This document shows, in pieces, positions 91-19,523 of a stretch of DNA of 64,000 nucleotides. The stretch is from an uncultured Chloroflexia bacterium (GTDB taxonomy: Bacteria > Chloroflexota > Limnocylindria > Limnocylindrales > CSP1-4). Under the pieces are notes generated by a model that searched no databases, was not told where the DNA came from, and saw only the letters and a list, made by a program, of their open reading frames with translations. The stretch's first letter is position 1; each line of letters opens with the position of its first letter. The DNA lies in NCBI GenBank assembly GCA_963699965.1, contig CAVOVX010000007.1, forward strand, positions 544,549 through 608,548, given 5' to 3'. The position numbers and the translations under genes are program-made.

Positions 91-1257
91 ATGGACGACC
101 CCGCCGGCCCATCAAGGCGGCCACGCCGACGCACCTCGAGCGTCGTCGCGGCGACCGCGATCGTGCTGGCCGGCATGGCCCTCGTCGGAGGCGGGCTGGC
201 GACCCGGGCCAAGCCGGCACCATCCGTCGTGCCTTCCCCATCGGTTGCCGCCCAGGCAACGCCGCTGCCGACTCCGGCCGTGACGACGGTCGGCTATCTC
301 GTCCCGCCGGCCGATCTTGCCGACCGGGCCGCGAAGGCGAGCAAGGGGGTCGAGCCGTGGGCGTCGGCGAAGGCGGACCTGTTGAAGGACGCCGACCGTG
401 CGATCCCGCCGGCGCCCCATCCGGCGGCGAGCCTCGACATCCCGGACACCGAGGGTCCGTTCGTCGATGACACGGCCACGGCCTATGGCCTCGCACTGGC
501 CTACTCGGTGACCGGCGACGTGCGTTACGCCGAGGCTGCCCGGGACTACATCATGGCCTGGGTCGGCACCACCAAGCGGCTGCTCAACGTGTGTCCCAAC
601 GACGGCGCCTGCCAGACGTCGCTGATCGTCGGCCGGGTCGCTCCCGGGTTCGTGTTCGCCGCCGACCTCATCCGTCCGGCTGGTGTCATGACCGCGGCCG
701 ATGAGGCGGCCTTCCGGGACTGGCTGCGTGACCTCATCCTGCCCGGCCTGTCCGAGCGGCCCAGCAACTGGGGCGACGCCGGCAACTTCTCGCGTGCGGT
801 GATCACCGACTACCTCGGCGACACGGTCGGCTTCGCCAAGGCGCTCGACGAGTGGAAGCAGCGGATCGACCTGATCCAGGCCGACGGGCACATTCCCGAG
901 GAGGTTCGCCGCGGCGACGACGGGATGTCCTACACGCAGGAGGCGCTCCAGTACAAGCTGGCAGTCGCCCGGCTGGCGGAGCTCCGCGGGGTCGACCTGT
1001 GGACCTACGTCGGCAAGGATGGCGGATCGCTGCGCGGCGCGATCGACATGCTCCGGAGCTACTGGTTCCAGCCCGAGACCTGGCCCTGGGATCCGCACGT
1101 CCGGGTCCCGTCGCCGAGCCCGATGTGGGAGATCGCCTACCAGCACTGGCAGGATCCAGCCTGGCCCGAGGTGTTCGCAGGCGATCGGCCGTTCGGGGAG
1201 TTCGGTCATGCGGCAATCCGCTGGACGACCCTGACCAACGGGATCCCGATCGAGTAG
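91..1257 (+). CDS. secreted/membrane-anchored polysaccharide-lyase-like protein (alginate lyase family-like)
   Basis: 388-aa intact ORF. N-terminal hydrophobic anchor (AIVLAGMALVGGGLA). Remainder resembles the alginate_lyase/heparinase II-III alpha/alpha-toroid family (…TATAYGLALAYSVTGDVRYAEAARDYIMAWV…NWGDAGNF…). Family assignment from memory. Confidence 0.45.
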   Translation: MDDPAGPSRRPRRRTSSVVAATAIVLAGMALVGGGLATRAKPAPSVVPSPSVAAQATPLPTPAVTTVGYLVPPADLADRAAKASKGVEPWASAKADLLKDADRAIPPAPHPAASLDIPDTEGPFVDDTATAYGLALAYSVTGDVRYAEAARDYIMAWVGTTKRLLNVCPNDGACQTSLIVGRVAPGFVFAADLIRPAGVMTAADEAAFRDWLRDLILPGLSERPSNWGDAGNFSRAVITDYLGDTVGFAKALDEWKQRIDLIQADGHIPEEVRRGDDGMSYTQEALQYKLAVARLAELRGVDLWTYVGKDGGSLRGAIDMLRSYWFQPETWPWDPHVRVPSPSPMWEIAYQHWQDPAWPEVFAGDRPFGEFGHAAIRWTTLTNGIPIE

Positions 1258-1267
1258 CCGGCGGCGC

Positions 1268-2162
1268 TCAGCGGCCGGTGCGCCACCTCAGCCGGGTCGG
1301 TGCGTCCCAGCCGGCCGGGATCGTTGCGGCGACCGGATCGACCGTCACGTGGACGATTCCGGACGGCACCCCGAGAGCCGAGAGCGAGCCGCGGCCCGGC
1401 GCCACGATGTCGATCACGAGGAGATAGTGGCCAGGTGTGCCCGGGGCCGTCATGGTCAGGTGGACCAGTCGATCCGATCCGGGCGGGACATCCATGGGCG
1501 AGCTCGAGCCGTTCGGAACCGGCTCGCCGGCGACGAGAGTGTCGAGCGCCAGCCAGCGAGCGACCACGATCGGCGAGTCAGAGCTCGGGGTCGAGGGCGC
1601 GACCGTCGGAGTCGACCGGCAGCGCCCACGGCTCCCTTCCGCTGTTGGCGACGCGGATCGACATCGGGAGCGAGGCGGAGGGTCGAACGGCTGCCGAGTC
1701 GACCATGCTGTAGCTCGCCCAGACCGGTCCGGTCACCTGGACCAGCAGGGCTGGGATCCGTGCCTGGGTCGCGGCGTCGACGGCAACCCCGTCACGATCG
1801 TGGAGCGTCGTGACCAGCCGGTACAGTCCCGGCCGATCGGGCAGCTGAGCTTCGACGGCCAGCCGACCCTCGACGACCTCCGTCGGCCCGGTCGTGACGA
1901 CCGTGCCCAGCGTCTCGGGCGCGACGAGGTCGATTGCCGGCGGCGTCCCGGACACGAGCGCCGGGTCAACCGGGAGGCTGCTCGAAGGGAGCGGCCCGCT
2001 GGCCTGGATGAGGTCCCAGCGCAGCCCGACCGTGACGTGATCGGGAAGGAGATCGAGCGTGGTTCGCACGAGCGGCAGCGAGACCGTCGACCGACCGCCG
2101 GCGATTGGCGCCCGGGCCAGGTCCGGCACGCCGAAGGCTGCCGTCCGGGGGATGACGGTCAC
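1268..2162 (-). CDS. hypothetical protein, apparently frameshifted near 1570
   Basis: Two adjacent minus-strand ORFs (1578-2162 and 1268-1567) with protein-like composition that reads on across a frame break. No recognisable motifs. Confidence 0.35.
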
Positions 2163-2271
2163 GGCCGACCCAGCGGACGTGCCGCCCGGCGACAGCGATC
2201 GATGGCTCGCAGCGGCGAGGACGCCGGACGATCGGACGCCTGGTCGCGCGGCAAGCGACCGGTTGTAGCCG

Positions 2272-3078
2272 TCACCGATCGTGGTCCGGATCGAGCATCA
2301 CCACCCGGCCCGGAGCCCGAGCGCTGTCGACCTGTACGACGTGGTCGTGGAACGTCGGTGCCGACGTCCAGATCCTTTCGATGCTCGCATCGGAGCGGAA
2401 GATGGCATCCACGTAATAGGCCGGACCCGAGTGGGCCTCGGCGATGACCGCGGCGGCCCCGGCAGCTAGCCATCCAGCTGCGTAGTTGTCGGCTCGCTGG
2501 ATGGCAACCGAGAGGGTCGGCTCGGGACCGCCGGGCTCGGGGTTCCCGCTCGCGTAGCAAAGGTGGCTGAGCACCACGACCGCCCCCGGAGCGAGGTGGA
2601 CAAGCTTCGCCAGGTAGCTCTCACCGAAGTACTGATGAGCGTCGTCCCCGCGGCCGGCGATCGGGTTCAACCCGAGACCGTTCTGCGTCGGCGGATATGG
2701 CTGATCCCGGTACGGCGACGGCCAGCCGTTGCCGTGGCCGAGGTAGACCACCAACGACGCGCCCTGGAGGGCCCGGCGCACCCGAGGCCAGGTCGCGTTC
2801 GGCGAGTAGACCGTGACGACCTCGTTCGCGTGCCGGCGCGCGACGCTCGCGGCCTCGTCGGCCAGGCTCCGGTAGTAGTCGGTCAGCGAGCCGACCGGGC
2901 CGACGACGATCGCGACCTTGGCGTTCGTGCGCGAAGCCCCCCGGACGGCGGCGCCTCCGGCTCCAGGCACCACGGCCAGCGCGATGATCGTCGCCACGAG
3001 GATCGCTGCGACCATCGTCGTGCCATGCCCGCGGATGCGAACCTTCGATCTGTCGGTCGCGGTCATCGGCCGATCCAC
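2272..3078 (-). CDS. secreted hypothetical protein, possible caspase-like (clan CD) His/Cys fold
   Basis: 268-aa ORF. N-terminal TM/signal (MVAAILVATIIALAVVPGAGGAA). 'VVYLGHGNG' and 'VVVLSHLCYASG' lie about 50 aa apart, resembling the caspase HG…C dyad. Overlaps the subtilase stop by 16 nt. Confidence 0.4.
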   Translation of the reverse strand: MDRPMTATDRSKVRIRGHGTTMVAAILVATIIALAVVPGAGGAAVRGASRTNAKVAIVVGPVGSLTDYYRSLADEAASVARRHANEVVTVYSPNATWPRVRRALQGASLVVYLGHGNGWPSPYRDQPYPPTQNGLGLNPIAGRGDDAHQYFGESYLAKLVHLAPGAVVVLSHLCYASGNPEPGGPEPTLSVAIQRADNYAAGWLAAGAAAVIAEAHSGPAYYVDAIFRSDASIERIWTSAPTFHDHVVQVDSARAPGRVVMLDPDHDR

Positions 3079-5773
3079 GATCCACGACTCGAGACGAACC
3101 GGTCGACGAGGATCGCTCCGCGCATCCCGGAGGCCAGGCCGGCCGACGGCCCCAGTCGGACCGACTCGATCCGGTATGCGTGGGTGTCAAGCCCGCCCCG
3201 GCTCGTGGCGGCGAGGCCGTCGATCCACAGCCGAAGACGGCTCGACCTCGCCGCCGACCAGCCGATCTCGATGGCGTGGGCGCCGCTAGCGATCCGCACC
3301 CAGCGGGTGAAGGACGTCCCGCCGCTGCGTCGCGCTCCCGCTCGGATCCAGCAGCCGCTCGTCGTCCGGCGGTATTCGAGCGAGAGGACGGTTGTGCCCC
3401 GTCCGTCACGACCGGCGAACAGGACGAATTGCGCGTCCGGCCGTCGACGTCTTGCGCGGGTCGAGGGTGAACCGCGCGTGGTAGACCCGTTCCGCATGCG
3501 GGCTGGTGTCCGTGACGTAGGCGGGGGACGACCCGAGGATCGTGGCCGTGAGACCGAACTGCCCGGCGGTGGCGGCCGTCGGGACCACCCGGAGCCGGGC
3601 GGTCCCGGTCGCCGAGCTCCACCTCGAGAGATCCGCCGTCTCGAATCCTTCGGCGAACAGGCCATCGGTGGGCGTCACCTCAATCGCCGCCGAGCGCGGG
3701 CTGCCCCAGTTTCCCGCCGCGTCGCGCGCGCGGACACTCACGATCCGTTCGCCGAACGTTGGGCCGGCAGGGATGACCGCGCCGACATTCTCCGTCGACC
3801 CGTCGAAGGCGCCGTCGCTCGGAACCATCGCGTCGCCCGAGCCCTCGCCCGGATCCGGTCCGCTGAACCACTCGGCGGCGCCGATTGGAGCGCCGCCGGT
3901 GTCGGCGGCGGTCGCCTCGAGGCTGATCGACGTCGTGCCCTGCGACGGATCCGGCAGGCCGTGGATTGCCCCGATCGCCGGGCCCGTCCGGTCGACGATC
4001 AGCACGCTGGACGACAGGGACCCCCAATTGCCGGCCGCGTCGTGCCCGCGGACCAGGATCTCGTGGGTGCCTTCCGAGAGCGCCGCCTGGTCGGCCGCGG
4101 TCAGGCTGACATTGGCCGTGCCGAACACCGCGCCGGATCCAAGCGACATCGGCCTGCCGCTCCCCGGCGGTCCGACCGCGTCGATCCAGAGTTCGGCCCC
4201 GTCGACAACCGTCCCGCCCGTCATTCGATCGTCGACCACGGCACTGACCAGGACGTCCGCGAGGCCGTTCGACGGGTTCGGAGCGACGGTCGGCTGATCG
4301 ACGACGGGACCCACCTGGTCGCCTTTCTGGGTTGGACTGGCCGTCGGCGTGGGCGTCGGGGTGGGTGACGCGAGGAGCCGGTCGTAGGCAGCCAGGACGT
4401 CGATCCGACCCGCGCCGAACGTGTCGTCCGGCCCGCCGGGTCCGAGGTCGGTGGCCGAGCCGACGAGCGCCGCCTCGAGCTCATCCACGGTCGCCGCCGG
4501 CAGCGCGCCCCGGAGCAGGGCGATCGCTCCCGTCACGTGCGGAGCCGCATACGAGGTACCCGAGCCGCTGCCGTACAACCCGAATCGGTCGCTCGTCCTG
4601 ATGTCGACCCCCGGTGCCACGACCGTCGGAAACGTCGCTGGGATCGCTCGACCACAGTCACTTGGGCCGCGACTCGAGAACCCAGCGATCGCGTCGCTGC
4701 CGTCCACGGCTCCAACCGCGAATGCGCTCGGGTTGTTGGCCGGGCTGGCCGACGTGGACCCGCCCGGCCCGAAGTTCCCGGCGGCGAAGACCGGCACGAT
4801 CCCGGCCTCGACGAGGGCGGCGAGATCCGGTTCGAACGAAAGGTCGCACGAGGGGGCACCGATCGCCCAGGAGGCGTTGACGACATCCGGGGCATCGTCG
4901 GTGAGCGGGTTCGCGTCCGGGTCGAGCACCCACTGGAAGGCCTGGTGGATCCCACTCGACGACGCGACGCCGCTGTCGTTGAAGATCTTCGCCGCGATCC
5001 AGTGGGCGGCGGGCGCCACCCCGATCGAAGTGCCGCCGGTCGACCCGCCGACCGAGATGCCGAGCGTCTGCGTCCCGTGACCATTGAGATCGGCGGGCGT
5101 CGTGGGATGTTGACCGGATGGATCGAACCAGCTGTTTGATCCCCCTCGCCAGGCGGCTGCGAGATCCGGGTTCGCCAGGTCGACGCCGGTATCCAGGCTG
5201 GCGACCAGCGCGCCGCCACCCCGCTCGCCGATCGCCCACAGCTGGGGCGCGCCGATCTGGACGAGGTTCGCCTCGATCGGTGGGGAGGCCGCCAGATATG
5301 ACCTCGGGCTCGGGAGCGGCGATCGACGAGTCGACCGAGATCCAGCGGACCTCGGGTCGAGCGGCGAGCTCGCGGATGACGCGCGGCGTGGCGGTCACGG
5401 CAACCGCGTTCACGATCCACAGCGGCGTGACGGACCGAACGTCGGTCGAAGCGTGCCGCCCGAGCGCCAGGCGGACGCCGGCTTGACCGACGTCGGCCGT
5501 CCGTTTCAGCGCTCCGACCAGCGCCCGGCGGCGGGCCCGCCGATCCGCACTCCGAATGGCCCGCGGATCGACTTGGTCGCGAAGCGTTGCGATGACCGGC
5601 AGGCGGTCGCCGGGAGCCAGGCCGGTGAGGCGCCCCTCAAGGACCGGGTCGATGGTGCCGGCCGGTGCGGCACCCGACGTTGCGGGTGGCGCGATCCCGG
5701 CGACCGGACTGGCGGTCGCGCCGAGGAGCACGACGAGCGCAAGCGCGACCGCCCCTCGGCGACCCGGGCTCAT
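3063..5773 (-). CDS. subtilisin-like serine protease (S8) with I9 propeptide, Ig-like domains and shared C-terminal cassette; 2 frameshifts
   Basis: Signal peptide plus inhibitor_I9-like propeptide (5773-~5300). D motif 'VASLDTGVD' and H motif 'NGHGTQT' found by translating the reverse strand 5300-5020. Ser motif 'GTSYAAPHVTG'. Ig-like domains with 'AAGNWG'. Conserved C-terminal domain ending 'SRGSWIGR*'. Frame breaks near 5300 and 3440. Confidence 0.75.
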
Positions 5774-5789
5774 CCGCGTCGACCAGAGC

Positions 5790-7741
5790 TCATCCCGGCC
5801 ATCCCTCGAGCGTCCCGACGGGGCTGGGTCCGCGGGCTGGCTCGGGGATGGCCGGGACGCGTGCCCGACGGTAGCCGGCGTACGCCAGGACGGCCGCGAG
5901 CAGGATCGTGCCCAGGAGGGCGGCGGCCGTGAGGATCGGCGAGAGCGGCTCGTCGGAGACGACGATGCGGCGCGGGGTGACCGGGACAGCGGAAGGAACC
6001 ACGGTCCACGGTGTCGTGAGCCTGGCCGGCGGCAGGCCGGGGCGGTCGATCGTCACCTTGACCGACCAGTCGCCCGGAGCGGTGATCGAGTCGCCGGCAA
6101 GCTCGTAGCGCCCGTTCCCGATCGGCCGGGCAACGAGCTCGGATACGTCGCCGGCCCCGTCCGGCGGGACGACGGCAACTCGGACCTCGCCGATCGGGGC
6201 CGGAGCCGGGCGCCGGGTGTCGTGGATCCCGATCGTGACGAAGTTGCGGCCAGGACGGTTCGGGCGCACGTTCGACGAGGACGAGGAGGTCGTCGGCCTG
6301 TCCCGAGGTGGTCGTCGGCCGCGCGGCGGCCGGGATCGGGTCGTACTCCGGTCCGCGGGCCGGCGGCGTCACTCCGAGCACGGCCACGACCGCGATCACC
6401 GCGACCGCAACGGTCATCTCGGCGGCGATCGAGCGGGCCGGACGGCGGGCGGACAGCCAGCCGGCGGCCCGGGCGGGCAGGCGACGCTCGATGGCGCCGC
6501 GCAGACCTGGATGGGTCGTCAGGGCGTTCCGCAGGCCGAGGATCGCCACGATCAGGACGAGCCCGAGCTTGACGATGAGGACCTGGCCGTACGGGCTCAG
6601 GAACAGCGCGTCAATCGAGGCGACGAGCTGACCGGTCGCGAACAGGCCCGTGACGACGATCGCGCCGAGGCTGGCCGCGGCGACGAACCCGAACCGTCGG
6701 ACGATCAGCAGGGCGACCGAGCGACCGCTCTGATCCACTCGGGCGAGCGGCAGAACCGTGAGCACGAGCGCCACCAGCCCGCCGACCCAGATCGCGGCCG
6801 CCAGCAGGTGCACCGTGCCGACCAGCAGACCGAGGGGAAAGGCGATCACCGACGCGAGGTGGGTCGCCTCGGCTTCCGATACCGCGAGCAATCCGACGAG
6901 CCCGAGTGACGCCACCGACTCGGCGGCCGACGGCCGTCGGATCGGGACTCGCGTCGTCCAGGCGGTGAGTCCCACGAGCGCCGCGACGATGACGATTCCC
7001 GCAATCAGGTCGACGGCGAACCCGGTCTGAAGCAGGCGGAGTGGTCCTGCGCCGGGTACGTCGACCTGCGAGGCCTGGACGACAATCCGAAGCGAGCCCG
7101 CGACGAGCGCTGCGCCACCGGCCGCCATCGCCAGTCGCGCAAGGCGCCGGCGGGCAGACGCCACGGCGCGGAGCGACCCGCTCACGTCCGACCAGGCAAA
7201 CGTCGGCAGGCCGACGTGGAGCAGCACGACGGCACCGATCAGGATCGACAAGCCAAGCAGGTCGGCCCAGCGCGCGACGACTTCGACCGCTCCGATCAGG
7301 GTGGGCCCCGCGCTCGCGACCGCGACGGCGGAGGACGCCGCAGTCCCAATCCCGAAGACGAGCGTGCCCGTCGACGGATGGAGGTCGTCGTTGGAGAGGA
7401 CCCTCCACGAGACGCGGTATGCGTCGGCCGGCAGGCTGGGGAGCTCGAGGACGATGACCGACGAGCTGCCCGGCTCGGCGATCGACCCTGACCGGGATCG
7501 GCTGACCTGATGAGGCGACCAGCTCCACGGTCGAGAGATCGGCGGCGACGGCCTGGGTGAAGACGAGCCGGATCCGCTCCGGCGCCTGGGTCAGAACCGA
7601 GCCATCCGCCGGGTCTGCGCCGAGAAGCAGGGCGTGGCCGAGGACCGGCGCCGCCGCGGGGCCAAGGAGCGCGATCAGCAGTGCGAAGGCGCTGACGACC
7701 CTCAGGCCGGTCCGCCGTCCCACCTCACTGGGCCACGACAT
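5790..7741 (-). CDS. copCD: copper resistance CopC-CopD fusion membrane protein (YcnJ-like) with C-terminal YtkA-like domain; 2 frameshifts
   Basis: CopC-like N-terminus (GHALLLGADPADGSVL…RIRLVFTQAV). Eight-TM-helix CopD region in ORF 5770-7251. C-terminal beta-domain plus TM in ORF 5790-6269. Segments are in three different frames. Confidence 0.65.
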
Positions 7742-8201
7742 GCGCGAGCTCCAGCTTGCCGAACACCACGGTGACCGACAGCCCTGGCTTGATCGCGCCT
7801 TGCGTATTCCGGTAGAGCATGAACCCGGTCCGACCGGCGGCGACGGCGTGCTTGGCCGTCATCAGCGCAGCCGAGCGAACCGTGACGCCGGTGCTCTCGA
7901 CCCGGAGGACGGGAACGTTCGCGACGTCCTGCATCATCGCCAGCGCACGATCGCTGTCGAGGACAAGGAAGCGCATCTCGACGAGGCCGCCGTCTGCGGT
8001 GACCGCGACGTGGGTGATCCGGATCCCCAGGCTGCCTCGATGGCCGGGCTCGTGGGGACGGCTCCGTCCGCCGCGGGCGCCGATGCGAGCCAGCGGACCG
8101 CGAAGAGAGAGGCGGCCGTCGTCGCGATGACGGCTACCGCGACGACGAGCCACCTTCTGGCCAGTGCCGGCGCTTTGGGCGCCGACACCGGGACGATCTG
8201 A
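7725..8201 (-). CDS. small membrane-anchored hypothetical protein (frameshift near 8010)
   Basis: ATG at 8201 then a TM helix (LVVAVAVIATTAASLFAV). C-terminal ~100-aa domain in a second frame. Overlaps copCD start by 17 nt. Good candidate for a copper-handling accessory protein, but no clear motif. Confidence 0.35.
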   Translation of the reverse strand, partial: SDRPGVGAQSAGTGQKVARRRGSRHRDDGRLSLRGPLARIGARGGRSRPHEPGHRGSLGIRITHVAVTADGGLVEMRFLVLDSDRALAMMQDVANVPVLRVESTGVTVRSAALMTAKHAVAAGRTGFMLYRNTQGAIKPGLSVTVVFGKLELAHVVAQ

Positions 8202-8237
8202 TCCATGCTTGAACCTCCCAGCCCTGAACGTGTCTGC

Positions 8238-10223
8238 CTAGGGTCCGATGCGCGAGCCCTTGGTCGAGACGAATTCGTCGAAGTACTCGGCCTGGCCGCT
8301 GCCGCTCGCGCTCGTCCCAAGGCGGACGTTCTCGAGCCGGAAGCGATGGGTATCGAGTCGGCGCAGCGTGCGCTTGACCTTGCCGTCGATCGACAGGGAG
8401 AACGTCGCCCGCTTGCCGGACTTCCAGGCGATCTCGATGGCGTGGGGGCCATCCGAAATTGCATACCAACCGGTCGAGGTGAGGCCGCCCGGTCGCCGGA
8501 CGAGGGCCCGGATCGCCCAGGCTCCGCCGCCAGCGCTCGTGCGTCGCGCTTCGATCCGGAAGAGCTGCGTGCCGCTGCCCGTCCGACCATCGAAGATGGT
8601 GTGGGCGCCGCGGATCGACCCATTCGGGTCGTACCAGAAGCGGGCCCGATAGCTCGCCTCCCGGCGTGGGCTCTTGTCGACGACGAAGCCGGCGCCCGCT
8701 GCCGGATCGACCCGGAGGCCGATCGTCGAGCCCTTCAGGGCAGCGGCGGGGTCGGCGAGGGCGCTGCCGCCGACCGCCGACCAGCCGGCCACGCCGGACT
8801 CGAAGTTCTGGACGAAGATCGTGTCGGCGGCCGGAAGGATGTTCTGCACGTCGATGGTCGTGTCCGCGCAAGCACCCCAGTTCCCGGCCGAATCGCGGCT
8901 GTGGACGCTGATCGTGTGGATACCTTGCTGGAGCGCGACGTCGATCGTTCCAGAGAGCCCGACGGTGACCGCCGCCGGCACGGTCAGGGTCATCGCCTGG
9001 CCCCCACCGTTGAGGCAGGCGGCATCGACGAACCATTCGGCTCCGACGACGTCGGATCCGCCGGTAGCGGTGTCGTCGCCGGTCGCGCCGATCGCGACGC
9101 CAAAGCTCTCAGGCGGCAGCGCGTCGCTGAGGGCCAGCCCGGTCGTGGCCGGCCCGTCGGTGTCACCGGCGAGGCCAGCTCCGACGTTGATCAACGCCAG
9201 CATGCCGCCGAAGGCGACGATCCCGCCGGTCGACGCACCCGCGTTGTCGGTGTGGCCCGCGGCGCTCTGGATCGCCAGCCGGGTGCCTGCGGCGCCCGCC
9301 GGGATCGTGGCGACCGCATCGAGGGTCGCCCCGGCCGGGATCGTCTCGGCGACGACCTCGTACGGGTAGGTGAAGGGGTGACCGTCGCCGGCGACGATGG
9401 TCTGGTGCATGCCGAGCACGCCGACGGACTGGTTCTCGAGCCCGGCGTTGACATAGCGGAGGAGGACCCGACTGCCTGCGGCCGCCGAGATCTCCGGGAT
9501 GTCAGGGTGCGCCTGGCCGTTGAACAGCCAGTACGTCGGGTGGTACTCGCGCATGTCGAAGCCCGCGGGCGCAGCGTGGAGGGCCGTGTCGATCTCGCTC
9601 ACCACGAGGAGCTCCTCGGTGCCGAAGTCGCTGGCCGCGTCGCCATAGCCGGAGGACGGGTCCGACGTCGGACGGACGACCATGGCGCCGTACAGCCCCA
9701 TCGCGACCTGCTTGGCGCCGTCGGCTGTCGGGCCGGCCTCGTATAGGAAGGTCCCCGGTGTCAGACCGGGCAGGTCATACGCCTTCGAACCACCGGCGGC
9801 GGCCCCGACCGTGTCGTCCGCGATCTCGTCGTGGCCCGGGAAGGCCAGCGACGACGCGTCAGCCAGGTCGTTGTGGAGGACGATGTGAAGGGTCTCACCG
9901 GAGTTCGCGACGAGCGTTGGACCGGGCAGCTGGGCGGAACCGCTCGGCGCCGCGCTCGTGCCGAGCGCGTACCCCCAGATGTCGACCGGGCCGGCGCCCG
10001 GCAGGCTGAGGGTGCCCGTCTCGGCCCACAGGTGGCAGGTCCGGGTGGACCCCGACAGGGTGCAGGTGGCAGCCGGGAGTGGACCGGCACCCGGGCCGCC
10101 CACCGCGGCCGCCGCACCGGCAACCGCTGGCCGAGAGCTGCCGAGCACGGGGCTCGCCAGGAGCGACCCGAGGATCGCGATGGTGGTCGCGGCCGAGGCG
10201 ACCGTCAGGCTTCGCGCACGCAT
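8238..10223 (-). CDS. secreted multicopper-oxidase-like (cupredoxin) protein lacking canonical Cu ligands, fused to Ig-like and shared C-terminal domain
   Basis: Start ATG at 10223 preceded by a GAAGGAGAGA RBS. Sec signal MRARSLTVASAATTIAILGSLLASPVLG. 'LPGPTLVANSGETLHIVLHN' and 'KQVAMGLYGAMVVRP' align to the CueO/CopA motif-1 and motif-2 regions, but HWHG is replaced by FPGHD and WYHSH by FLYEAG. C-terminal 330 aa are shared with the subtilase and the giant protein. Confidence 0.65.
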   Translation of the reverse strand: MRARSLTVASAATTIAILGSLLASPVLGSSRPAVAGAAAAVGGPGAGPLPAATCTLSGSTRTCHLWAETGTLSLPGAGPVDIWGYALGTSAAPSGSAQLPGPTLVANSGETLHIVLHNDLADASSLAFPGHDEIADDTVGAAAGGSKAYDLPGLTPGTFLYEAGPTADGAKQVAMGLYGAMVVRPTSDPSSGYGDAASDFGTEELLVVSEIDTALHAAPAGFDMREYHPTYWLFNGQAHPDIPEISAAAGSRVLLRYVNAGLENQSVGVLGMHQTIVAGDGHPFTYPYEVVAETIPAGATLDAVATIPAGAAGTRLAIQSAAGHTDNAGASTGGIVAFGGMLALINVGAGLAGDTDGPATTGLALSDALPPESFGVAIGATGDDTATGGSDVVGAEWFVDAACLNGGGQAMTLTVPAAVTVGLSGTIDVALQQGIHTISVHSRDSAGNWGACADTTIDVQNILPAADTIFVQNFESGVAGWSAVGGSALADPAAALKGSTIGLRVDPAAGAGFVVDKSPRREASYRARFWYDPNGSIRGAHTIFDGRTGSGTQLFRIEARRTSAGGGAWAIRALVRRPGGLTSTGWYAISDGPHAIEIAWKSGKRATFSLSIDGKVKRTLRRLDTHRFRLENVRLGTSASGSGQAEYFDEFVSTKGSRIGP

Positions 10224-10248
10224 GGCGTGTCTCTCCTTCGTCGTCACG

Positions 10249-11552
10249 TCAGCAACCGCCTGGTGGATCGATCCGGATGAGCGTGAGCATCCCGCCGAAG
10301 CCGGCGCCGTAGTTGGTCGCCTCGTTGAGGGCGTGGCTATGGGCGACGTGGTAGTACTCGCCGCACTCGTTGTACGAGGTGATACCCGTCGGGAGCTCGT
10401 CCTGGACGCCGAGGTACGGGCTCCCGCTGTACCAGGTCGCGTCGTCCTTGTAGGTGATGTTCTGGGGCTGCGGGATCGTGACCGGGATCGGGTTCGTCGT
10501 CGGGTTCCAGTCCTTCCGACGTCGGTGCCAACTTGAAGGTGGACGTCCCAGGTCTGCCCGGCCCCGACCAGGACCGTGAACTTCTCGTACGACAGGTCCT
10601 CGCCGGCATCGGCCTTCGAGCAAGCGGCCGTCGCGGGCGATGACGCGGCCGTGGTTGCCGTGCGGGTGGAACGGGTGGTTGAGCGATGCCGACGTTCAGG
10701 TAGCGGATCAGCGCCGGATCGGGATTGCCCGCGGCGTCGTACGGCTCGATGTGGACGAGCGCGCTGTACGGCTGGTTCGGCAGCCACGCCGCGTCCGTTT
10801 GGCGCGATCGTGTCCGGGAAGCTCCGCCCGTTGATCATCCAGTAGCGCGGGTGGTAGGTGGTGCCGTCGTACGCCTGCCCACGCTCGATCGCCTGGTGGA
10901 GGTCTGGATCGACCTCGGAGAAGCAGCATCGTGTACTCGGTGCTGGCCTTGAACTTCGGTCGCGACGCGTCATAGGCCTAGTCGGGGTTGCCATGTCGGC
11001 CGGACGACGAGCGCGCCGTAGAGGCCCATCTGCACCTGCTTGGCCGGATCGGTGCCGCTCTCGTAGATGTACGTCCCGGGCTCGGCGGCGGTGAACGTGT
11101 AGGTCACCGAGCCGCCGTCCGGCTGCGGCCGGCTGGACGAGCGAGGTGACCTCGCTGCCGCTCGAGCTGCGGCTCGGCCGGGGCGCCGTCCGCCTGGACT
11201 CCGGTCTGACCCGGGAAGACGATCGAGACGGGCTCGGCCAGGTGTTGTCAGGGTGACCGTGACGTCGTCGCCCTGGTTGACGCAGAGCGTCGGCCCGGGC
11301 AGCTGGAAGGCGGTCGAGCCCGAGTCGCTGTAGCTCCACATGAAGATCGTGTTGCCGTCAGGGATGCTGACGTAGCCCGACGTGGCGTGCAGCGTGAAGC
11401 TCGGCGTCGGGCTGGCATCCGACGTACAGCACGATCCCGGACGCCGGAGGGGCGGCCGCGGTCGCGGCTCCCGCCCCCGACATCGTCGACATCGCGAGCG
11501 TCGCGGCGGCAACGAGGCCCAGCCGGCGTCGCGTGGAGGTGAGTCGAGTCAT
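10249..11552 (-). pseudogene. Tat-signal multicopper-oxidase-like paralog with degenerate Cu motifs, multiple frameshifts
   Basis: Tat-like signal MTRLTSTRRRLGLVAAATLA. 'FQLPGPTLCVNQGDDVTVTL', 'GTYIYESGTDPAKQVQMGLYGALVVRP' (no His). C-terminal 'YYHVAHSHALNEATNYGAGFGGMLTLI'. Pieces are spread over at least 4 frames. Confidence 0.5.
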
Positions 11553-11572
11553 CGTCGCATCTCCTCGTGCCA

Positions 11573-12912
11573 TCAGGCCGGGTTCGTGTTGGGTGCGGTC
11601 TGAGGTCCGAGGGTTCCCGTCGGGAAGACGTGGATCTCGGTCATCTGACCCCCGGGACCAGCCTCGCCCGGGTTGTGGAGGTAGGCGAGGTTGCGGTTGT
11701 AGAGGAGGATACGTCGTCTCGCTGCCAACGTCCGGCGCCGTGAACGATCGCGTCGACGCTCTCGCCCGGACCGATGTAGACGGTGTTGGTCAGGTAGCTC
11801 AGGTCCGTTCCATCGCGGCCGTTGAGGTAGGTCGCGTCCTTGCCGACGACCCGCATGGTCGAGGCCGTCGATCGTCATCGCGTGCTGCTGGAAGCCCAGG
11901 TTGACGAAGCGAAGGAGGACACGGTCCCCGCTGTTCGCGTGGACCAGCGACGAGATCGGCTTGTACTGGAGTTCGTCGTGGCCGGCAGGGGCAATGAGGT
12001 CGCCGCCCGGATCCGTACCACCGCCCGGCCCGACTAGGGTGTCCGGCTAGGAGCGCCCGTTGAGGAACCACAGGTCGGGGTCGTAATCCGTCCAGTCGTG
12101 CTCCTGGATGTGGGCGCCCTCGTAGTGCTCCTGCGCCCAGCCCTCGCTGAGGAACATGCCCCACTCGCGGTCGTAGGCGGTCGAGCGCGGGGAGGATGGC
12201 GCCACGCCGTCGTTGTAGACGTACTTGCCGGCCGGGATCGAACCGCCGCCGGCGTTCTGGGCCGGCCGGACGAAGATGATCCCGGTCATGCCCATGGACA
12301 CGTGCTCGATGTCCTCGAAGTGGCAGTGGTACATGTACGTGCCGGGGTCGTGCGGTCGGTAGAAGTACGTGAAGTTCGCGCCCGAGCGGGACGGCGACCG
12401 ACATCTCCGGGACGCCGTCGAACAACGGAAGCGCGTTGCCGGAAGCCGTGCCAGTGGATCGTGTGGGAGTCGGTCAGATCCGGTCGGACCGACAGGCCCA
12501 GGTTCGTCAGGTTGATCTGGACGTCATTGGCCAGGGCCGGCTCGTACTCGTCGACCCACAGCTGGGGCGCCGACGCCTGGAACTTCCCGCGCTGGGCCTG
12601 GACCTGGGTCGGCGTAAGACCGCTGACGTTCCGGAACCCGAAGCCCCACATCGTGAACGGAGGCGGAGCGAGGGGATCCGGCAGGAACGGCGCTCCCGGA
12701 GTCGGCCCGGCGACGCTGCCGCGAGCGAAGGTGAAACCGTCGGTTGCGGCGAGCGAGATGTGCTGGGTACCTGCGGCGGCGACCCGCGGAGCGGAGACGC
12801 CGGTTGGCAGGCCACGGAGGAGAGTGGCCCCGGCTGCCCCCGCCGCCGCGAGTCCGGTGAGCTTCATGAACGTCCGACGGTCGAAGCGCCGATCGAGCAT
12901 TCGCATGGTCAT
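11573..12912 (-). CDS. Tat-secreted multicopper oxidase (CopA/CueO-like), frameshifted at least 3 times
   Basis: RBS GGAGACG then ATG. Twin-arginine signal MTMRMLDRRFDRRTFMKLTGLAAAGAAGA. 'HTIHWHGF' and, after my manual re-framing, '…FTYFYRPHDPGTYMYHCHFEDIEHVSMGMTGIIFVRP' (HxH motif 2). Two frame changes occur within 40 codons at C/G runs. Confidence 0.6.
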
Positions 12913-12964
12913 CGTGGTCGTCTCCGGGTTGTGTGGGGTGTGGTGGTTCGATCGCATCTCGCCC

Positions 12965-15900
12965 TCACTTCCCGATGTAGGTGTTGCGGGTCGACATGAA
13001 CCCGTCGAAGAAGAGGGTTCCTCGGCTGGCCTTCGGCACCGACCCGACGAGCCCGAGTCGGACCCGGTCGAGCCGGAGACCCCTGGTATTGCCGGTGACC
13101 GCGTTCTTGCCCTTCCCGTCGAGGTAGAGCCGGAGGTAGCCGGTCGAGCTCGCCTTCCAGGAGATCTCGATCGCGGTGGCTCCGTTCCGGATCCGATACC
13201 AGGCCGAGCTTCGCTGTTGGCCATTGCGGAGCGTCAGGACCGCGCGGACCTGGTACTTGCCGTCGTGGCGTCGGTACTGGACCTGGAACAGGGACCTTCC
13301 TGTGGCCGGCTTGCCGACGAAGATCGTCTGCTGGCCGCTGCCCGTCCTGGCGCCATTCGGATCGAAGTAGAACCGGGCGTGATAGGTCGACTCGGCGCTC
13401 GGACTCGCGTCGGTCACGCCGGCCTCTCGGCGTCCGACGACCTTCACCGACATCCCCTGCGTCCCGAGCAAGGCCGCCGCCGGGTTGAGCTTCGCCTGGC
13501 TGGCTACCGCGACTGATGTCCACGGTGGGACGAGCGTCGGGCCCTCGAAGTCAGACTCGAGGAGGACCAGCGGCACGGTGTGATCGACCGCGATCGTGAT
13601 GGTCGCGACCGGTCCCCAGTTGCCGGCTGACTCCTGGGCGCGGAGGTTGACGAGGTGATCGCCCGCGCTCCATGCCGAGGTGTCGATCGTGGCGCTCGCC
13701 GAGGCCGTTGGGCTCCCAAACGTCCCGCTCAGGGGCGTTCCGGCGCCGGCGCCCGGGTCGGGGGCCTCGAACCACTCGACTGCACTGATGTTCGAGCCAC
13801 CGGTTGATACGTCGCTGGCGTCTGCGCCGAGACTCGTCGAGGCATTCGCCGGGTTCGGCGTAGCGAGCAAGTTGCTGACCATCGGACCGAGGAGATCGGA
13901 CACCGGGCCGGGCTGTTCGTCCGCTCCGACATCGAACGCGGTGCCGGTCGGTCGGCCGGCGGTGTCGATGTCGACCGTCGGCGCGTTCGTGCCGCTCTTG
14001 GTCGAGGCACCCGCGTCGACCGCCGGCGAGCCGGACGTGACGTGGTAGTCGCCCATCAGCGACGGCGGCAGATCCGCCGAGACGATCAGGTTGTAGATGA
14101 ACGCTGCACCCGCCCGCCAGGGCAGGAAGTCGACCGACACCGCGTAGGAGTCATCGACGATCACCGGGTTGGCCCCGATCTGGTTCGACGCGTCGGGCGC
14201 GATGACAGAGTTGGTGTTCTCGTTGAGGACCGAGTTCGTCGGATGGAGCGGGCCCAGGGCATCGACGACGCCCATGTCCCACAGGGTGATGTCACCAGGC
14301 CCGGCGGTGCCGAGACCATCGACGCGGAACGTGTTGCCGTCGATGACCCGGTTGCCCGCCCGGTTGTCCCAGAAGATGTTGTTGAACATCAGCGGGTCGC
14401 CGTACTCTGCGTGCCCGGGCGACAGCTCGGCCTGGAGCAGGACGCTGTTGCCGGAGTCGGACAGCCCCGCCGGGGCGGCTGGGGCCGGCCCGTTCGCCAC
14501 CCCGGCCGTCTGGGCCGTCGCCGTGGTCAGGTTCTTCATCACCGTGTTGTTGAAGAACCTGAGGTTCGTGGTGTCGTCGAGCGCGACGCCGCCACCCTCA
14601 TGGGCCGCAACGTTGTTCGCGATGATGTTGTTGTAGGCGTTGATCTGGTGGTCGCCGGCCATCAGGAACCGCAGGCCGCCGCCGTCGTCGTCGGACAGGT
14701 TGCCCTGGACCACGTTGTTGAAGATGTCGACCCTGCCCGAGCCTGGGGACAGGAGGTTGACGTCCGCTTGGGCCTCGCCGGCGACGATGATCCCGCCGCC
14801 CTCGTCGTAGGCACGGTTGAACCAGATCCGGTTGTCGTGGATCGAGCTGGTCGGATGGGCCGCGGTCGGGTTACTCAGGCCGTAATGGCTGAGGCCGCCG
14901 CCGTACTCGGCCGAGAAGTTGCCGCAGATGTCGTTGTGGTCGACCTCGTAGCCGTTCGTGCCGTCAAACAGGCCGACTCCGCCAGCCAGGTTCGATCCGC
15001 CGTTGGCCACGATCCGGTTGTGGGCGATCCGGAGGTTGTCGTTGTGCTGGTTGCCGACGTTCGGGGTGCCGACCCGGATGGCCGAGCCGTAGGCGCCACC
15101 GTTGCTCACGAGCACGTCGTTGGTGATCTGAAGGTCCCGGGCGTAGGCGTTGACGAAGATGCCTCCGCCCTGGACCGGATAGAACGGCTGGTTGCTCGGG
15201 TAGCCGAATTCGTCACCGTTCTTGATCGTCAGGCCGTCAATCGACGCCTTGAACGACGACCCGAACTCACCGTCTCGAGCGAGAACGTAGACGACCTGGC
15301 CCTCGTAGATGGCCTGATTGCCGTCCCAGCCAAGGCCGGACTGGAGGTTCTCGACCCGGTCCTGCCAGGCCGCGAAGTTCGTGGTCGCGAAACCCAGACC
15401 GTTGAGGATCGAGCCGAGCACGTAGCTGCCATCCGAGCGAACGCCGCCGGGGCCGACGCCCTGGAGCTTTACCGGTGCGTGGATGACGACGCTCTCGTAG
15501 AAGTCGCCGAGCGGTGTGAACTGGCCGGGCGTATTCGGGTAGACCACGACCACGCCGTTGTTGCCGACGGAGGCATCGATCGCGGCCTGGACGGTCGGGT
15601 AGGCGTGGCCCGGCCCGACTTCGTAGATCGGCGGGTTGTAGCCAATGCCGGTGACGTGGTAGGTCAGGCCGTTGATCGTCGACAGGCCGCTGTCGGCGGT
15701 GATCGAGAGCTGGTGCGGCCCGACCGGGACGCCGGACACGGTGGCGTGAATTCGCGGTCGCTCCACGAGTCAATCGTGATCGCGGTCCCGTCGAGGTCGA
15801 CGCTGCCGCCGCCCTGGCTGGCGCCGAACTGGTCGCCCTGGATGACGATGCTTGCGCCGGACGCGCCATACGGCGTATCGACGGCGAAGAGGACCGGACG

Positions 15901-18900
15901 GTTCGTCTCGACCTTGCACTCCGACGGATGGGTCGTCTGCTCGCCCGGAACCTCGATGACCGGAGCCGTCGGCATGAGGGCGACATCGGCCAGCAGGGTC
16001 AGACCCGGCCAGAGCTGCCAGTCGGACTCGAGCGTCCGGTACTGAGGCTGGTAGTCCGGGTTGGGCTGGCCGGGGGTTCCTGGGTCGTTGCCGACCAGGC
16101 GGTACACGCCAGGGCAGGGACCGGCCGGCAGCGGGCAGTTGTAGCTCGCGGTCGAGGGGAGGAGGACCTCGAAGAAGCCGTTCGGGTCCGAGTGCATCGT
16201 CGTGACCAGATGGCCCGCGTAGTCGTAGATGCCGATCGGCGCGTTCGGGACGCCGGCCTTCTCGCCGAAGTAGAACTCCTTCGGGTTCGTCCCCAGTGCG
16301 AGGTCCTCGACGACGGCGCCGTAGAGCCGACCCGGGGGCGGAACGGAGGCGAAGAAGAAGAAGCTCGGGGCGATCGACTTGCCGTTCTGGACCGGGACGA
16401 GCCGGGTGTCGCAGAGCGGCTTGCTCAGCCCTTCGTACGGGCTACCGCCGCCGTCGGCGAAGCCGGGGTTGTCGGTCGCGTCCGAACCGTCGACGCCCGA
16501 ACCGGCCACGTCGACGACGTGGAGTGCGCCGGCGCACGGCGGGGGCGGAACCTGCGGCGTGAACTGGTTACCGTCGAAGACGTTGACGTCCTCTTCGCGG
16601 ACGATCTGGAACTTCGGCTTGCCGAAGGCGTCATCCGGGCCCACGACCTCGACCAGGTAGTCGGCCGGAGTAAGGGCTTCGAAGTCGGCTCCATTGCAGA
16701 CGGGAGCGGACGGATCGGTGTCGTCGATGGTCCCGTTGAAGCAGCCGTCGCCGAAGCCGTAGTTGCCGTTGACGAGCGTGAACTCGGAATCGGCCCCACC
16801 CGGGGTCGTGTCCTCGGTCGGGCCCGTCTTGATCTGGTTGCCCATGAGCGGCGACTCGATGCACTGGTGACCGCCGGTCGTATCCGCCATGAACGGGAAG
16901 TCGATCTCGGCACCGACGCCGCCCTCGGACGGCGGCGCGCCGCGAGCGATGCAGTCCGTCGGACGGACGAACTCCTCGGTGATATAGGTGTTGAGGAGGT
17001 GGCCGTGGGCGTATGACCCGTCCGGAGCGAGCTCGTAGTGGTTGGCGGCATCGCACGGCGTGCCGCTGTTCGTCCCGCATGGAACGGGCAGGTACAAGTT
17101 GACCCGCATGCCGGGGATGCCGGGCTCGTAGTCCTCAGCCGCAGCCAGTCGCGGATCGAGCTCGTTGCGAGTGACCGCGTAGACGACCTCGCCGACGATG
17201 CCGCCGTTCGTGCCCGGGTCGTACGGGATGACGCCCCAGTCGACCCGCGACTTGAGGCCGTCCTGGTTGAGGACGGACAGGTCGACGCCGGCGCCGAGGC
17301 GGGTGGTCTCCGGACCGTTGTCGGCCTTGTAGGTGACGCCGGTCGTCATGAACAGGTCGTTGTAGGCCTCGAGGACCGTGAAGTAGCCGTACGGGTAGAC
17401 CTGCTCGAAGAGATAGTGGCCCTTCGAATCGGTCGTCGCGGTCTTGCTGCCGGCGTCCACGATGGCGTTGTCGCGCGACTTGAGCGCGACGCCGAAGCCG
17501 GCCAGGCCGGGCTCTCCGGCGTCCTGCCTGCCGTTGCGGTTCGTGTCGACGAAGACGGTCCCCTCGACCTTGCTGAACCAGTGCGACAACGCGAAGTCGC
17601 CGATGTCGACGACCTCGTTGTCGCCGACCACGGCGGTCGTGATCCCGAGCAGCAGGTTCTGCGCCTCGTCCCACATCGAGATCGAGTACGTGCTCGGCGG
17701 CACGTTCGGGATGTCGAAGACGCCATTTGTCGACCGAACGGCGTAGACGAGCAGCTCGTCGCCGCCCCGCTGCAGGTCGTTGAGGGCGATCCAGGCGTTA
17801 TGGACGGGGCCCTCGTCGGTGTCGCCGCCGGCCGGCGGCAGGTAGGACTTCGTCGAGCGGACAGCTCCCTTGATCTCGCCGCAGTTCGATCCGCACGGGA
17901 AGAGGAACGTGCTCCTTGGCTTGACGTAGCCGATGGCCGCGACGGCGACCGGGCCGCCGTTGACGATGAGCTCCGTGTCGTTGCCCGAGTACCCCTCGAA
18001 GAGCCAGGTATCCCAGTCATGGCCACCTTCGAGCGTGCTCGTCTGGATCCACGACTCACCGTCCGGTGGGACGACCTGCACGCTGTAGCAATTCGTGCCC
18101 AGGTTGGGGATCGTGATGACCCCATCGGGATCGGCAATGCACTCGCCGCCGGTCCCCGGGATGTAGACGAACTCGCCGGCCGAGTCGACGCCATAGTTCG
18201 ACGTGTTGCCGTTCGGGTCGACGCTGAGCGGCGGCTCGCCGCCGGGGCCATCGGGGTCGTCACCGACCTTGTAGTAGTCGGCGCACAGCGGGTTGCCGAA
18301 CCAGTCGGTGGTGACCTCGCCGAGGACGTCGGCGATGTGGGCCTTGAAGTGGTGGGTTGGACCCGCGGTGACCGGCGCATGCTCGCCCGGCGGGTCGAAC
18401 TGGCCGTTCGTCAGCGTGTCGTCGAAGATCTGGACGCGCAGCCGCCCGAGCTGGAGTGGCTCGGGAGTGAGCTGGACGACGAGCGGGCCGGCATCGTCGA
18501 TCTGCATCGCGAAGTGCCTGCCGCCGATCTTGAAGCCGGGCGCCAGGATCGAGATGAGGTACTTGCCGTTGGGGAGGTCGATCCCGGTCGTCCCGTTGAG
18601 CTCGGTCTGATCGCCCTGGGTGACCAGGTTGTCGACTCCGCCGGCGCCGCCGGTGAAGTTGTGGACCGACGGCCAGTCGCAGCCGTCCGGGTAATTCACG
18701 TTGGTCGCGGGGAAGCAGTCGGCCGCGGCCTGGTTGGGCTTCCCCGTGTCATCGACGTCGATCCGCCAGCGATATGGGCTGACCGCGCTCGAGTCGTCGA
18801 TGTTCACGACGCTCAGCGTCAGCGTGCTCGTCAGAGCCTGGGGAGCAGCAGCCGTGGCGTCATTCGACGGGCGCGCGGAAGCGAGGACGAAGCCGGAAGG

Positions 18901-19017
18901 CACGAGGGCACTGACGATGAGTCCGAGCAGGCTGATGAAGACGAATCCCTTGTACAAGCCGGACCGGCGGCCGGACGGATGCCCTGCCGCACCGTGAGTG
19001 CTCGAGTGCCCACTCAT
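12965..19017 (-). CDS. giant (~2,000-aa) secreted protein with SdrD-B/Cna-B-like repeats, right-handed beta-helix, Ig-like domain and shared C-terminal cassette; one frameshift near 15745
   Basis: RBS GGGAGGGAG then ATG at 19017. N-terminal anchor GFVFISLLGLIVSALV. 'VFVDTNRNGRQDAGEPGLAGFGVAL…TDSKGHYLF' is SdrD-B-like. PbH1-like 'NNIIANNVAAHEGGGVALDD…NNTVMKN' repeats. ORFs 15664-19218 and 12965-15766 read continuously ('…TAITIDSWSDREF|ATVSGVPVGPHQLSI…') if one base is adjusted. Confidence 0.65.
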
Positions 19018-19523
19018 CGGGATCGCTCCCTCCCTGGTCATCCGAATTCCTGAACGTCGGTTGTGCGCTGGTTCGGGTTGCTCGACGTAGCGGTCGCGGC
19101 CGGGGATCGATGCCGAGACGATGGGGAACGTCGGTGCCCCACTCGCCTTTTCGGCACGCCCCGGACATCGCTCGCCCGGCCGGATCGAATCGTCGTGGCC
19201 GCCGACCGCCGGCACCATCCGGTCGGGGGTACGAATGGCCCGGGGTGTTCACCCGGCTCCGACCCGGCAGAGTCCCGAACTTGAATTGGGGACGACCTGA
19301 CGCCGGTGTCGCCGGGCACCACCCGCCGATCGGAAGCACCAATCGATCGGGGTACCGATTTCTGGAGGCCCGACAGGACGAATGACCCGCCTCGAAATGG
19401 CACAGGCCCGACCGACCGAGGTACAATCCCGGGACCGTCGGTGCCACGCCCGCCAGGAGGTCGAATGAACCCTCCTGTGGCGACAAGCCAGCCGCACCAT
19501 CCCCAGCGCGGGGGAACTACGCG

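Follow-up and report, generated by a model that had tools for sequence, protein, structure and literature searches.

A predicted jelly-roll domain akin to polyuronate lyases ends three unrelated secreted proteins of a Chloroflexota bacterium and represents a large family

Three otherwise unrelated secreted proteins encoded in a 64-kb stretch of Chloroflexota DNA (hereafter the window) share a C-terminal cassette composed of an Ig-like domain of ~105 aa and a terminal domain (CTD) of ~200 aa. The CTD represents a large family without a curated model, almost confined to Chloroflexota, and we assign it, with a probability of roughly 0.5, as a non-catalytic, putatively Ca2+-stabilised module of lyase ancestry that would bind a ligand and tether the protein carrying it.

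Results

All three genes lie on the minus strand of the window. The first (3063..5773) encodes an S8 subtilase with a signal peptide, a propeptide, a Peptidase_S8 domain (Pfam, E 1.5e-41), a PT linker, two Ig-like domains and the CTD. The second (8238..10223) encodes an MCO-like protein of 661 aa (P0073), in which a signal peptide and two cupredoxin-like domains (Pfam Cu-oxidase_3, E 7.8e-10; Cu-oxidase, E 5.6e-4) precede the cassette, and the third (12965..19041) a giant protein of ~2,025 aa with an N-terminal signal/TM segment, SdrD_B/CarboxypepD_reg-like and TIG domains and a right-handed beta-helix ahead of the cassette. The CTDs occupy 3066..3669, 8241..8828 and 12968..13570 of the same strand, respectively, and a stop codon directly follows each. 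Pairwise blastp comparison of the cassettes revealed 35-37% identity over ~300 aligned aa (E 1.6e-41, 3.1e-56 and 9.7e-46), and the CTDs without the Ig-like part are 40-42% identical to one another. The sequence-only reading of this DNA, which had proposed a shared end of family-level similarity on the three proteins, is borne out, and the motifs that it quoted are all present (FE.G..W, Y.ARF..DP, AIEI.W, L.IDG/L.LDG, VRLG and FD.F.S....IG); its length of ~330 aa was an overestimate, the measured cassette being ~305 aa. HMM searches of all six frames of the window detected no fourth CTD copy, and scanning it for Rfam families and tRNAs gave no match.

Two of the genes are broken in the window. 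The subtilase gene carries indels near 5296 and 3437 and was reconstructed by three-frame reading; the indel near 3437, identified by DNA alignment as an extra C, is a 1-nt insertion that splits the CTD, which was read across it. The giant gene is frameshifted near 15750. Contig L081 matches the window at 98.6% identity (89 gap columns in 20 kb) and contig L082 at 99.2% (33 gap columns in 20 kb). Both contain an intact 902-aa subtilase with the same cassette, and L081 also holds the giant as an intact 2,025-aa ORF with the same cassette; the giant of L082 falls into three separate gene calls. Because near-identical contigs hold intact genes ending in the same cassette, the frameshifts of the window are assembly indels, and an interpretation of the affected genes as pseudogenes was ruled out, since the near-identical assemblies break different genes. 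In alignments with the two remaining cassettes, the intact subtilase cassette of L081 gave E 7e-42 and 1e-53.

The Ig-like domain of the cassette lies at 3670..3984 in the subtilase, where it displays the signature AEWF..PDPG.G.G ... RARDAAGNWG, at 8841..9155 in the MCO-like protein and at 13577..13888 in the giant, all on the minus strand. The subtilase possesses an extra copy (3985..4311, minus strand), which aligns with the other three (HMM i-E 1.5e-43) and shows a weak resemblance to Big_13. The window copies score 16-20 bits against PF19077 Big_13 (E 1e-3 to 1.5e-2; 0.015 for the MCO-like protein and 9.5e-4 for the giant), below the threshold of 27 bits; a relative matches Big_13 with E 5.9e-8, and one fragment already carries a PF19077 annotation. 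In the AF2 model of the giant cassette the Ig-like domain is all-beta, with block-mean pLDDT mostly 88-97 and one block of 72 over residues 1-100. This Big_13-like domain would serve as a spacer ahead of the CTD.

A word-indexed search with the window copies returned 5 matches, whereas an exhaustive HMMER search uncovered a large family, overturning the idea that the family is rare. The CTD is carried by thousands of secreted Chloroflexota proteins, with many loci per genome, and the cultured Anaerolinea thermolimosa IMO-1 (L060) is among its hosts; a few matches fall in MAGs assigned to other phyla and may be binning errors. Wherever the search output gave names, CTD-only entries were "hypothetical protein" or unnamed. 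One to six copies occur per protein, separated by Pro/Thr linkers, and the partners comprise RHS toxins, PKD, CBM_4_9, InlB-type repeats, S8 and M4 proteases, metallophosphatases and MCO-like domains; one protein (P0224) consists of four TM helices, a linker and a single CTD. Pfam and NCBIfam gave no significant match to the three window cassettes, so the module of the window is covered by no model of either collection, and NCBIfam gave none to 34 diverse CTDs. The CTD found no match among PLSDB plasmids by tblastn, and a literature search yielded no relevant description of a Chloroflexota C-terminal domain.

The three copies had been attributed to recent intragenomic shuffling, which their 35-42% identity and their relationships contradict. 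The MCO copy is 77% identical to P0001 in another genome, the subtilase copy 63% identical to its 947-aa orthologue in L001 and the giant copy 48% identical to P0002 in another genome, in every case exceeding the identity to any window copy. The order of a subtilase with the cassette and an MCO-like C-terminal end is repeated in synteny in another Chloroflexota MAG, and an architecture of MCO-like domains, four Ig domains and a CTD occurs elsewhere (P0088). Because the nearest relatives of each window copy sit in other genomes rather than beside it in the window, the fusions and the shuffling behind them are ancient. The window displays an ordinary modular-protein pattern, and neither a recent rearrangement nor a new signal.

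The same reading had suggested that a conserved IG followed by a basic residue forms a processing or sorting signal. The window tails are STRNTYIGK in the giant, TKGSRIGP in the MCO-like protein and SRGSWIGR in the subtilase, and the consensus of the family at this point is YIGP rather than IG and a basic residue, with Pro or Leu after IG and then a linker in internal copies. The best 159 proteins hold 230 complete CTD copies, of which 157 are internal; tandem arrays reach six copies. Because internal copies carry the same motif, followed by Pro/Thr linkers, the IG end is not a C-terminal signal and the CTD is not a C-terminal sorting signal. YIG(P) is the last short strand of the CTD, and proteins often end there because the module is usually placed last. 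The suggestion that the end is not LPXTG, PEP-CTERM, T9SS-CTD or SLH agrees with our data: the window tails have no hydrophobic segment, copies are often internal or in tandem, and no Pfam or NCBIfam match to SLH or other curated anchors was found in the window proteins or 51 relatives. A broader proposal is that Chloroflexota have an export or attachment machinery of their own that recognises the CTD at the C-terminus as a secretion or sorting domain, perhaps with cleavage at IG as in T9SS CTDs. It would suit a phylum-restricted family with many loci per genome and many unrelated secreted cargos, and also the strong bias of the CTD towards the very end of proteins (73/159 of the best proteins and 47/76 genomic copies stop within 3 aa of IGP). 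However, it is difficult to reconcile with the internal and tandem copies, with the residues that follow IG, with RHS proteins whose copies lie far from the C-terminus and with P0224, in which an N-terminal membrane anchor is joined to a CTD without cargo. Moreover, with its 200 aa and conserved charged face the CTD far exceeds known sorting domains in size, and no dedicated machinery gene was found beside the window genes. We consider this proposal highly improbable.

Structural models of the CTD predict a concanavalin-A-like beta-jelly roll of ~200 residues with two antiparallel sheets, superposable on known members. The possibility of a novel fold is thereby refuted, and Foldseek points to the alternative once offered beside it, a LamG/ConA-like jelly roll. 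Its nearest structural neighbours are, with few exceptions, uronate lyases; they are active enzymes and not lectins, which tells against a pure binding role. The sole Pfam family touched is PF14099 Polysacc_lyase, matched by 12/51 full-length members at E <= 1e-3 (best E 1.9e-13) and by 9/34 diverse CTDs at E <= 1e-2 (best E 6.9e-7, a domain value near the gathering threshold); in the window the giant CTD reaches 14.0 bits (E 0.046), far below the threshold of 29.9 bits, and the other two give no match. None of the 34 diverse CTDs matches PF21340 Cip1-like (threshold 27 bits) at E <= 0.01, although Cip1 and TtX122A do. By hhalign the CTD profile aligned with Cip1 at E 5e-4 and 31% probability, in which the N-terminal DDFESG..W and C-terminal WFDD pair with CTD motifs, and with PL7 sequences from PDB at 0.4% probability, which is not significant. 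By-eye motif alignments to PL7 (RTELR / QIH / YFKAG) were dropped since their registers conflict. Searches of PDB sequences with two profiles produced no real match, the only resemblance being that of the N-terminal FE.G..W to a tandem CBM22 (4XUP, E 0.005). We place the CTD in the jelly-roll branch that comprises polyuronate lyases of the PL20/PL7 type and the orphan modules Cip1 and X122.

Alignment of 215 CTD copies revealed E10 and D184 to be conserved in 98% and 100%, respectively, and each window copy has the two residues. In Cip1 and 2ZZJ the N-terminal loop, through Asp5 O and Glu7, and the C-terminal strand, through Asp206, together hold a structural Ca2+ (PMC3764139), and E10 and D184 correspond to Glu7 and Asp206 of Cip1 in the hhalign alignment (31% probability) read together with that structure. 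With an acidic D-x-F-E loop and an Asp on the C-terminal strand, the CTD carries the sequence features of a putative PL20/Cip1-type Ca2+ site, in which the initial FE.G..W and the final FD.F.S would be the two halves of a fold-stabilising Ca2+ grip. Conserved charged residues recur at alternating, outward-facing strand positions (R63 94%, D67 78%, R95 63%, R107 72%, E132 96% and D148 83%), and all six are kept in the three window CTDs. The inner face, assigned inward or outward by strand periodicity alone, appears charged rather than aromatic, which suits catalysis as well as binding.

These residues bear on whether the CTD is an active polysaccharide lyase, performing PL20/PL7-like beta-elimination on a uronic-acid polymer, so that its hosts would be bifunctional enzymes cutting an acidic matrix or envelope polysaccharide. 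The fold neighbours and PF14099 speak for this, as do the conservation of R63, Y60, Y104, H129 (80%), Q105 (67%) and E132, an R-x-E-x-R strand (positions 91-95) that recalls the R-T-E-L-R motif of PL7, and a PF05426 alginate-lyase-like gene in the same conserved neighbourhood. However, the PF14099 scores of the window copies are far below threshold, neither a QxH nor a YFKAG-type motif is seen in the CTD and the PL7 alignment is not significant. The candidate Tyr, His and Gln positions differ among the three window copies, Y104 being W in two, H129 being T in the giant and Y65 being W or T, and both the arrays of three to six copies and the fusion partners, among them proteases, RHS toxins and phosphatases, would be expected of a binding module more than of a catalytic domain. 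Cip1 and X122, which are related to the CTD, combine a conserved Ca2+ patch with a conserved Arg-centred inner face, and no lyase activity was detected for them (PMC3764139; PMC10916295). An active lyase is thus unlikely.

[quoted passage not shown] ConA-like jelly rolls do mediate protein contacts, and BoNT Hc, calreticulin and collagen NC4 are among the Foldseek matches. Against this, the structures that match best act on carbohydrates, the conserved charges of the inner face recall the grooves in which lyases hold their substrates and there is no evidence of oligomerisation, and we regard it as less probable still than an active lyase. In the reading that we prefer, the CTD is a non-catalytic binding module whose conserved charged inner face would recognise a polymer. 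The most plausible ligand is an acidic glycan, be it part of the cell envelope, of a sheath or of the extracellular matrix. An enzyme, toxin or adhesin joined to the CTD would thereby be kept in place, with avidity raised by tandem copies, and the CTD may in this way anchor proteins to a wall or sheath.

Discussion

Soils, sediments and activated sludge are rich in Chloroflexota, and to our knowledge the way in which these bacteria display or retain secreted proteins is poorly understood. A more far-reaching proposal, which we put forward tentatively and hold to be rather doubtful, is that the CTD serves the phylum as its general means of surface retention, a counterpart of SLH, LysM or T9SS-CTD that has lost catalysis and binds an acidic envelope or sheath polysaccharide. 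If so, it would define the surface-displayed proteome of the phylum, including proteases, oxidases, RHS toxins and adhesins. A dedicated CTD HMM would annotate a large share of the Chloroflexota extracellular proteome. The family constitutes a large new branch of lyase-like jelly-roll modules beside Cip1 and X122, whose function has stayed elusive despite crystal structures and assays, and the tandem CTD arrays and the cultured Anaerolinea thermolimosa offer a new handle on it.

Among known systems, the T9SS CTD of Bacteroidota is likewise a phylum-restricted beta-sandwich with which many secreted proteins, unrelated to one another, end. It is, however, a single-copy, strictly C-terminal domain of ~70-100 aa that is removed on export, whereas the Chloroflexota CTD has ~200 aa, is often internal or in tandem and is predicted to be a jelly roll. 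CBM4/9/22-type CBMs and SLH, LysM and CWB repeats resemble it in being attached to diverse secreted enzymes, often repeated, separated by linkers and Ca2+-stabilised (putatively so in the CTD), yet neither beta-sandwich CBMs nor wall-retention modules show significant sequence kinship with the CTD, whose modelled structure is nearer to lyases. Of these, the PL20 endo-beta-1,4-glucuronan lyase TrGL (PDB 2ZZJ; PF14099) shares 11-12% sequence identity with the CTD, its catalytic residues have no assigned counterparts there, and it is a stand-alone enzyme, whereas the CTD accompanies unrelated proteins as an accessory module, at their end or in tandem. The jelly-roll alginate and heparin lyases of PL7, PL36, PL18, PL13 and PL14 differ in that the PL7 invariants (R82, R86, Q127, H129 and Y223; PMC11920209) have no demonstrable counterparts in the CTD. 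Finally, the Cip1 core (PDB 3ZYP; PF21340) and X122 (TtX122A, PDB 8Q28) occur in fungi, Actinobacteria and Gammaproteobacteria, whereas the CTD belongs to Chloroflexota.

Three secreted proteins close with one two-part cassette

Three minus-strand genes, encoding a subtilase (3063-5773; Pfam Peptidase_S8), an MCO-like protein of 661 aa (P0073, 8238-10223; Pfam two-cupredoxin) and a giant protein (12965-19041; Pfam SdrD_B, TIG and beta-helix regions), all end in an Ig-like domain of ~105 aa followed by a terminal beta-jelly-roll domain of ~200 aa, here termed the CTD. The CTDs occupy 3066-3669, 8241-8828 and 12968-13570, and the adjoining Ig-like domains 3670-3984, 8841-9155 and 13577-13888, respectively, with a second Ig-like copy in the subtilase at 3985-4311 (all minus strand). 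These three CTDs and four Ig-like domains are the full count in the 64 kb window, as revealed by HMM search of the six reading frames. Pairwise blastp over ~300 aa gave 35-37% identity between cassettes (E 1.6e-41 to 3.1e-56), bearing out the proposal of the sequence-only reading that a single cassette closes all three genes; the CTDs by themselves share 40-42% identity and 52 invariant columns.

The subtilase CTD is broken by one extra C near 3437, and further frameshifts lie near 5296 in the subtilase and near 15750 in the giant. Two metagenome contigs, ENA ERZ25039502 (L081; 98.6% identical to the window, 89 gap columns in 20 kb) and ERZ25039520 (L082; 99.2%, 33 gap columns in 20 kb), encode an MCO-like protein identical to P0073 and the subtilase as an unbroken 902-aa ORF, and the giant is an unbroken 2,025-aa ORF in L081 and three gene calls in L082. 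Because the broken genes differ from assembly to assembly, the window frameshifts were attributed to assembly indels; pseudogenisation was rejected, the indel pattern being typical of long-read assembly noise. Single-base indels affect many window genes (3437, ~5296, ~15750, 5800-7750 and 10260-12955) and are absent or elsewhere in the two contigs. After frameshift correction the copies still align, the unbroken subtilase cassette matching those of the MCO-like protein and the giant (E 7e-42 and 1e-53).

The MCO-like protein lies in a copper-related minus-strand cluster (~5800-12955) together with two multicopper-oxidase genes (459 and 430 aa in L082), a 160-aa ORF and a CopC/CopD fusion of 649 aa. 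It has just two cupredoxin-like domains, with FPGHD in place of the usual HWHG-type copper motifs. The subtilase is adjoined by a secreted protein of 598 aa and unknown family (~1286-3082, minus) and a PF05426 alginate-lyase-like gene (91-1257, plus), possibly marking an acidic-polysaccharide context; this order is repeated in the Chloroflexota MAG GCA_039931975.1, the nearest relative of this high-GC Chloroflexota lineage, with identical gene order.

Age of the fusions

Recent domain shuffling had been proposed to explain the three copies. The fusions are not recent, however: every window copy is nearer to proteins of other genomes (best identity 77%, 63% and 48%) than to its companions (38-42%). 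Both the cassette-bearing subtilase and the MCO-like C-terminus, the only part of that protein present before the contig end, keep their syntenic order in a Chloroflexota MAG, and the matching CTDs there are only ~63-77% identical to the window copies.

The CTD belongs to a large uncurated family

No Pfam or NCBIfam model recognises the window copies, the sole hints being Big_13 on the Ig-like part and PF14099 (Polysacc_lyase, E 0.046) on the giant CTD. PF14099 is matched by 12 of 51 relatives (best E 1.9e-13) and by 9 of 34 diverse CTD copies (best E 6.9e-7), none of which matched PF21340 (Cip1-like) or any NCBIfam model, and PDB sequence searches with CTD family profiles gave no match. The CTD family is a sister to PF14099 and is itself uncurated.

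When 1.84 billion cluster representatives were searched exhaustively with a profile, 4,172 proteins passed E <= 1e-3 and 1,030 passed E <= 1e-30; many contained 2-6 matched stretches. Consensus-like CTD members used as queries in a word-indexed search retrieved 1,336 proteins with E <= 1e-10; every one is unnamed or a "hypothetical protein", and almost none has a Pfam assignment. Scanning a single genome for each species confirmed 189 CTD stretches, from which 79 loci were kept, often several from a single genome and almost all from Chloroflexota (Anaerolineae/Anaerolineales, Caldilineaceae, Chloroflexia and Roseiflexaceae). A few loci sit on short contigs of MAGs labelled as other phyla (L019 and L056, Syntrophothermus; L034, Gaiellaceae; L040, Bacteroidota); these are likely binning contamination, lateral transfer being the alternative. 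A convenient experimental entry point is the cultured isolate Anaerolinea thermolimosa IMO-1, whose CTD protein (>1,203 aa; 13-3624 of locus L060) ends in NYIGP. It carries another large repeat twice, long Pro/Thr/Ser linkers and a terminal CTD, and by eye a region like a DUF1080/LamG-type domain.

The cassette pattern is real yet ordinary in kind, that of a promiscuous extracellular module reused across many proteins. The novelty lies in the module itself, a large and uncurated family, centred on Chloroflexota, within the lyase-like jelly-roll group.

Architecture and the terminal motif

The 159 best proteins carry 1-6 CTDs each, and of their 230 complete copies 157 are internal and 73 lie within 3 aa of the C-terminus. 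Among 76 genomic loci that were collected independently, 47 have a stop codon within 3 aa of the CTD, and in 26 the CTD is followed by Pro/Thr-rich linkers and more domains. The 24 residues preceding a CTD are likewise Thr- and Pro-rich. Partner domains include RHS repeats, PKD, CBM_4_9, InlB-type repeats, CARDB, DUF11, S8 and M4 proteases, metallophosphatases, FG-GAP and Cu-oxidase_3. An Ig-like domain followed by a CTD is also seen in 7 of the 159 best proteins, one of which, P0088 from another organism, combines DUF11, an MCO-like region, four Ig-like domains and a CTD. Three RHS-repeat toxin-like proteins (P0006, P0007 and P0155; 2,000-5,200 aa) carry 4-6 tandem CTDs upstream of the RHS shell, spaced by "IGPDP.AP.PP" linkers. 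P0224 (365 aa) consists of four predicted TM helices, a Pro/Thr linker and a single CTD, and therefore the CTD can be the sole ectodomain of a membrane protein.

The sequence-only reading had suggested a processing or sorting signal, or an anchoring module, from the final "IG+". The family form is YIGP, and internal copies are followed by P (n=75) or L (n=38), then commonly "DP"; the last residue is basic in two window copies alone, P in others and N in an orthologue. In the cassette model the motif forms the short strand that closes the CTD (E304-306; pLDDT low, ~55, over the final few residues). The signal reading does not hold, since the motif also occurs mid-protein, and a sorting domain, which the terminal copies would suit, is very improbable.

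Putative role and comparison with characterised modules

We favour, at about 0.5, a putative non-catalytic, lyase-derived binding or tethering module, whose ligand would most plausibly be an acidic envelope, sheath or matrix glycan. This is preferred because catalytic-type residues vary, PL7 motifs are unalignable, and tandem arrays and a wide cargo range occur. In two window copies W replaces the candidate Y104, the giant has T for H129, and Y65 is replaced by W or T; neither a QxH nor a YFKAG motif of the PL7 type could be aligned. An active lyase, to which kinship with PF14099 might point, is unlikely. A protein-protein assembly module, which could also serve such varied partners, appears less likely again. 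The family consensus contains an R-V-E-[LF]-R strand (MCO-copy positions 91-95) that recalls PL7 "RTELR", and a "DND" loop (159-161); a subgroup comprising the window copies, P0002, P0003, P0088 and P0136 is devoid of the "DND" and "A.GANNG" loops.

For the nearest characterised modules, Cip1 (PMC3764139) and X122 (PMC10916295), no lyase activity and no binding to plant polysaccharides was seen. The structural Ca2+ of Cip1 and of the PL20 glucuronan lyase 2ZZJ is held from the N-terminal loop by Glu7 and the main chain of Asp5, and from the final long strand by Asp206 (PMC3764139). The most conserved polar CTD residues are E10 (98%; N-terminal "D.FE.G..W") and D184 (100%; C-terminal "FD.F.S"), and the family profile pairs their motifs with the Cip1 ligand motifs (hhalign E 5e-4, probability 31%). 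E10 and D184 would thus correspond to the Cip1/2ZZJ Ca2+ ligands, and because of this pairing the start and end signatures are best read as the putative Ca2+ "grip" of the fold. Conserved charged residues at alternate strand positions, opposite hydrophobic ones (R63, D67, R95, R107, E132 and D148), are unchanged in all three window copies, a pattern suggestive of a functional, charged face comparable to the inner patch centred on Arg in Cip1 and X122.
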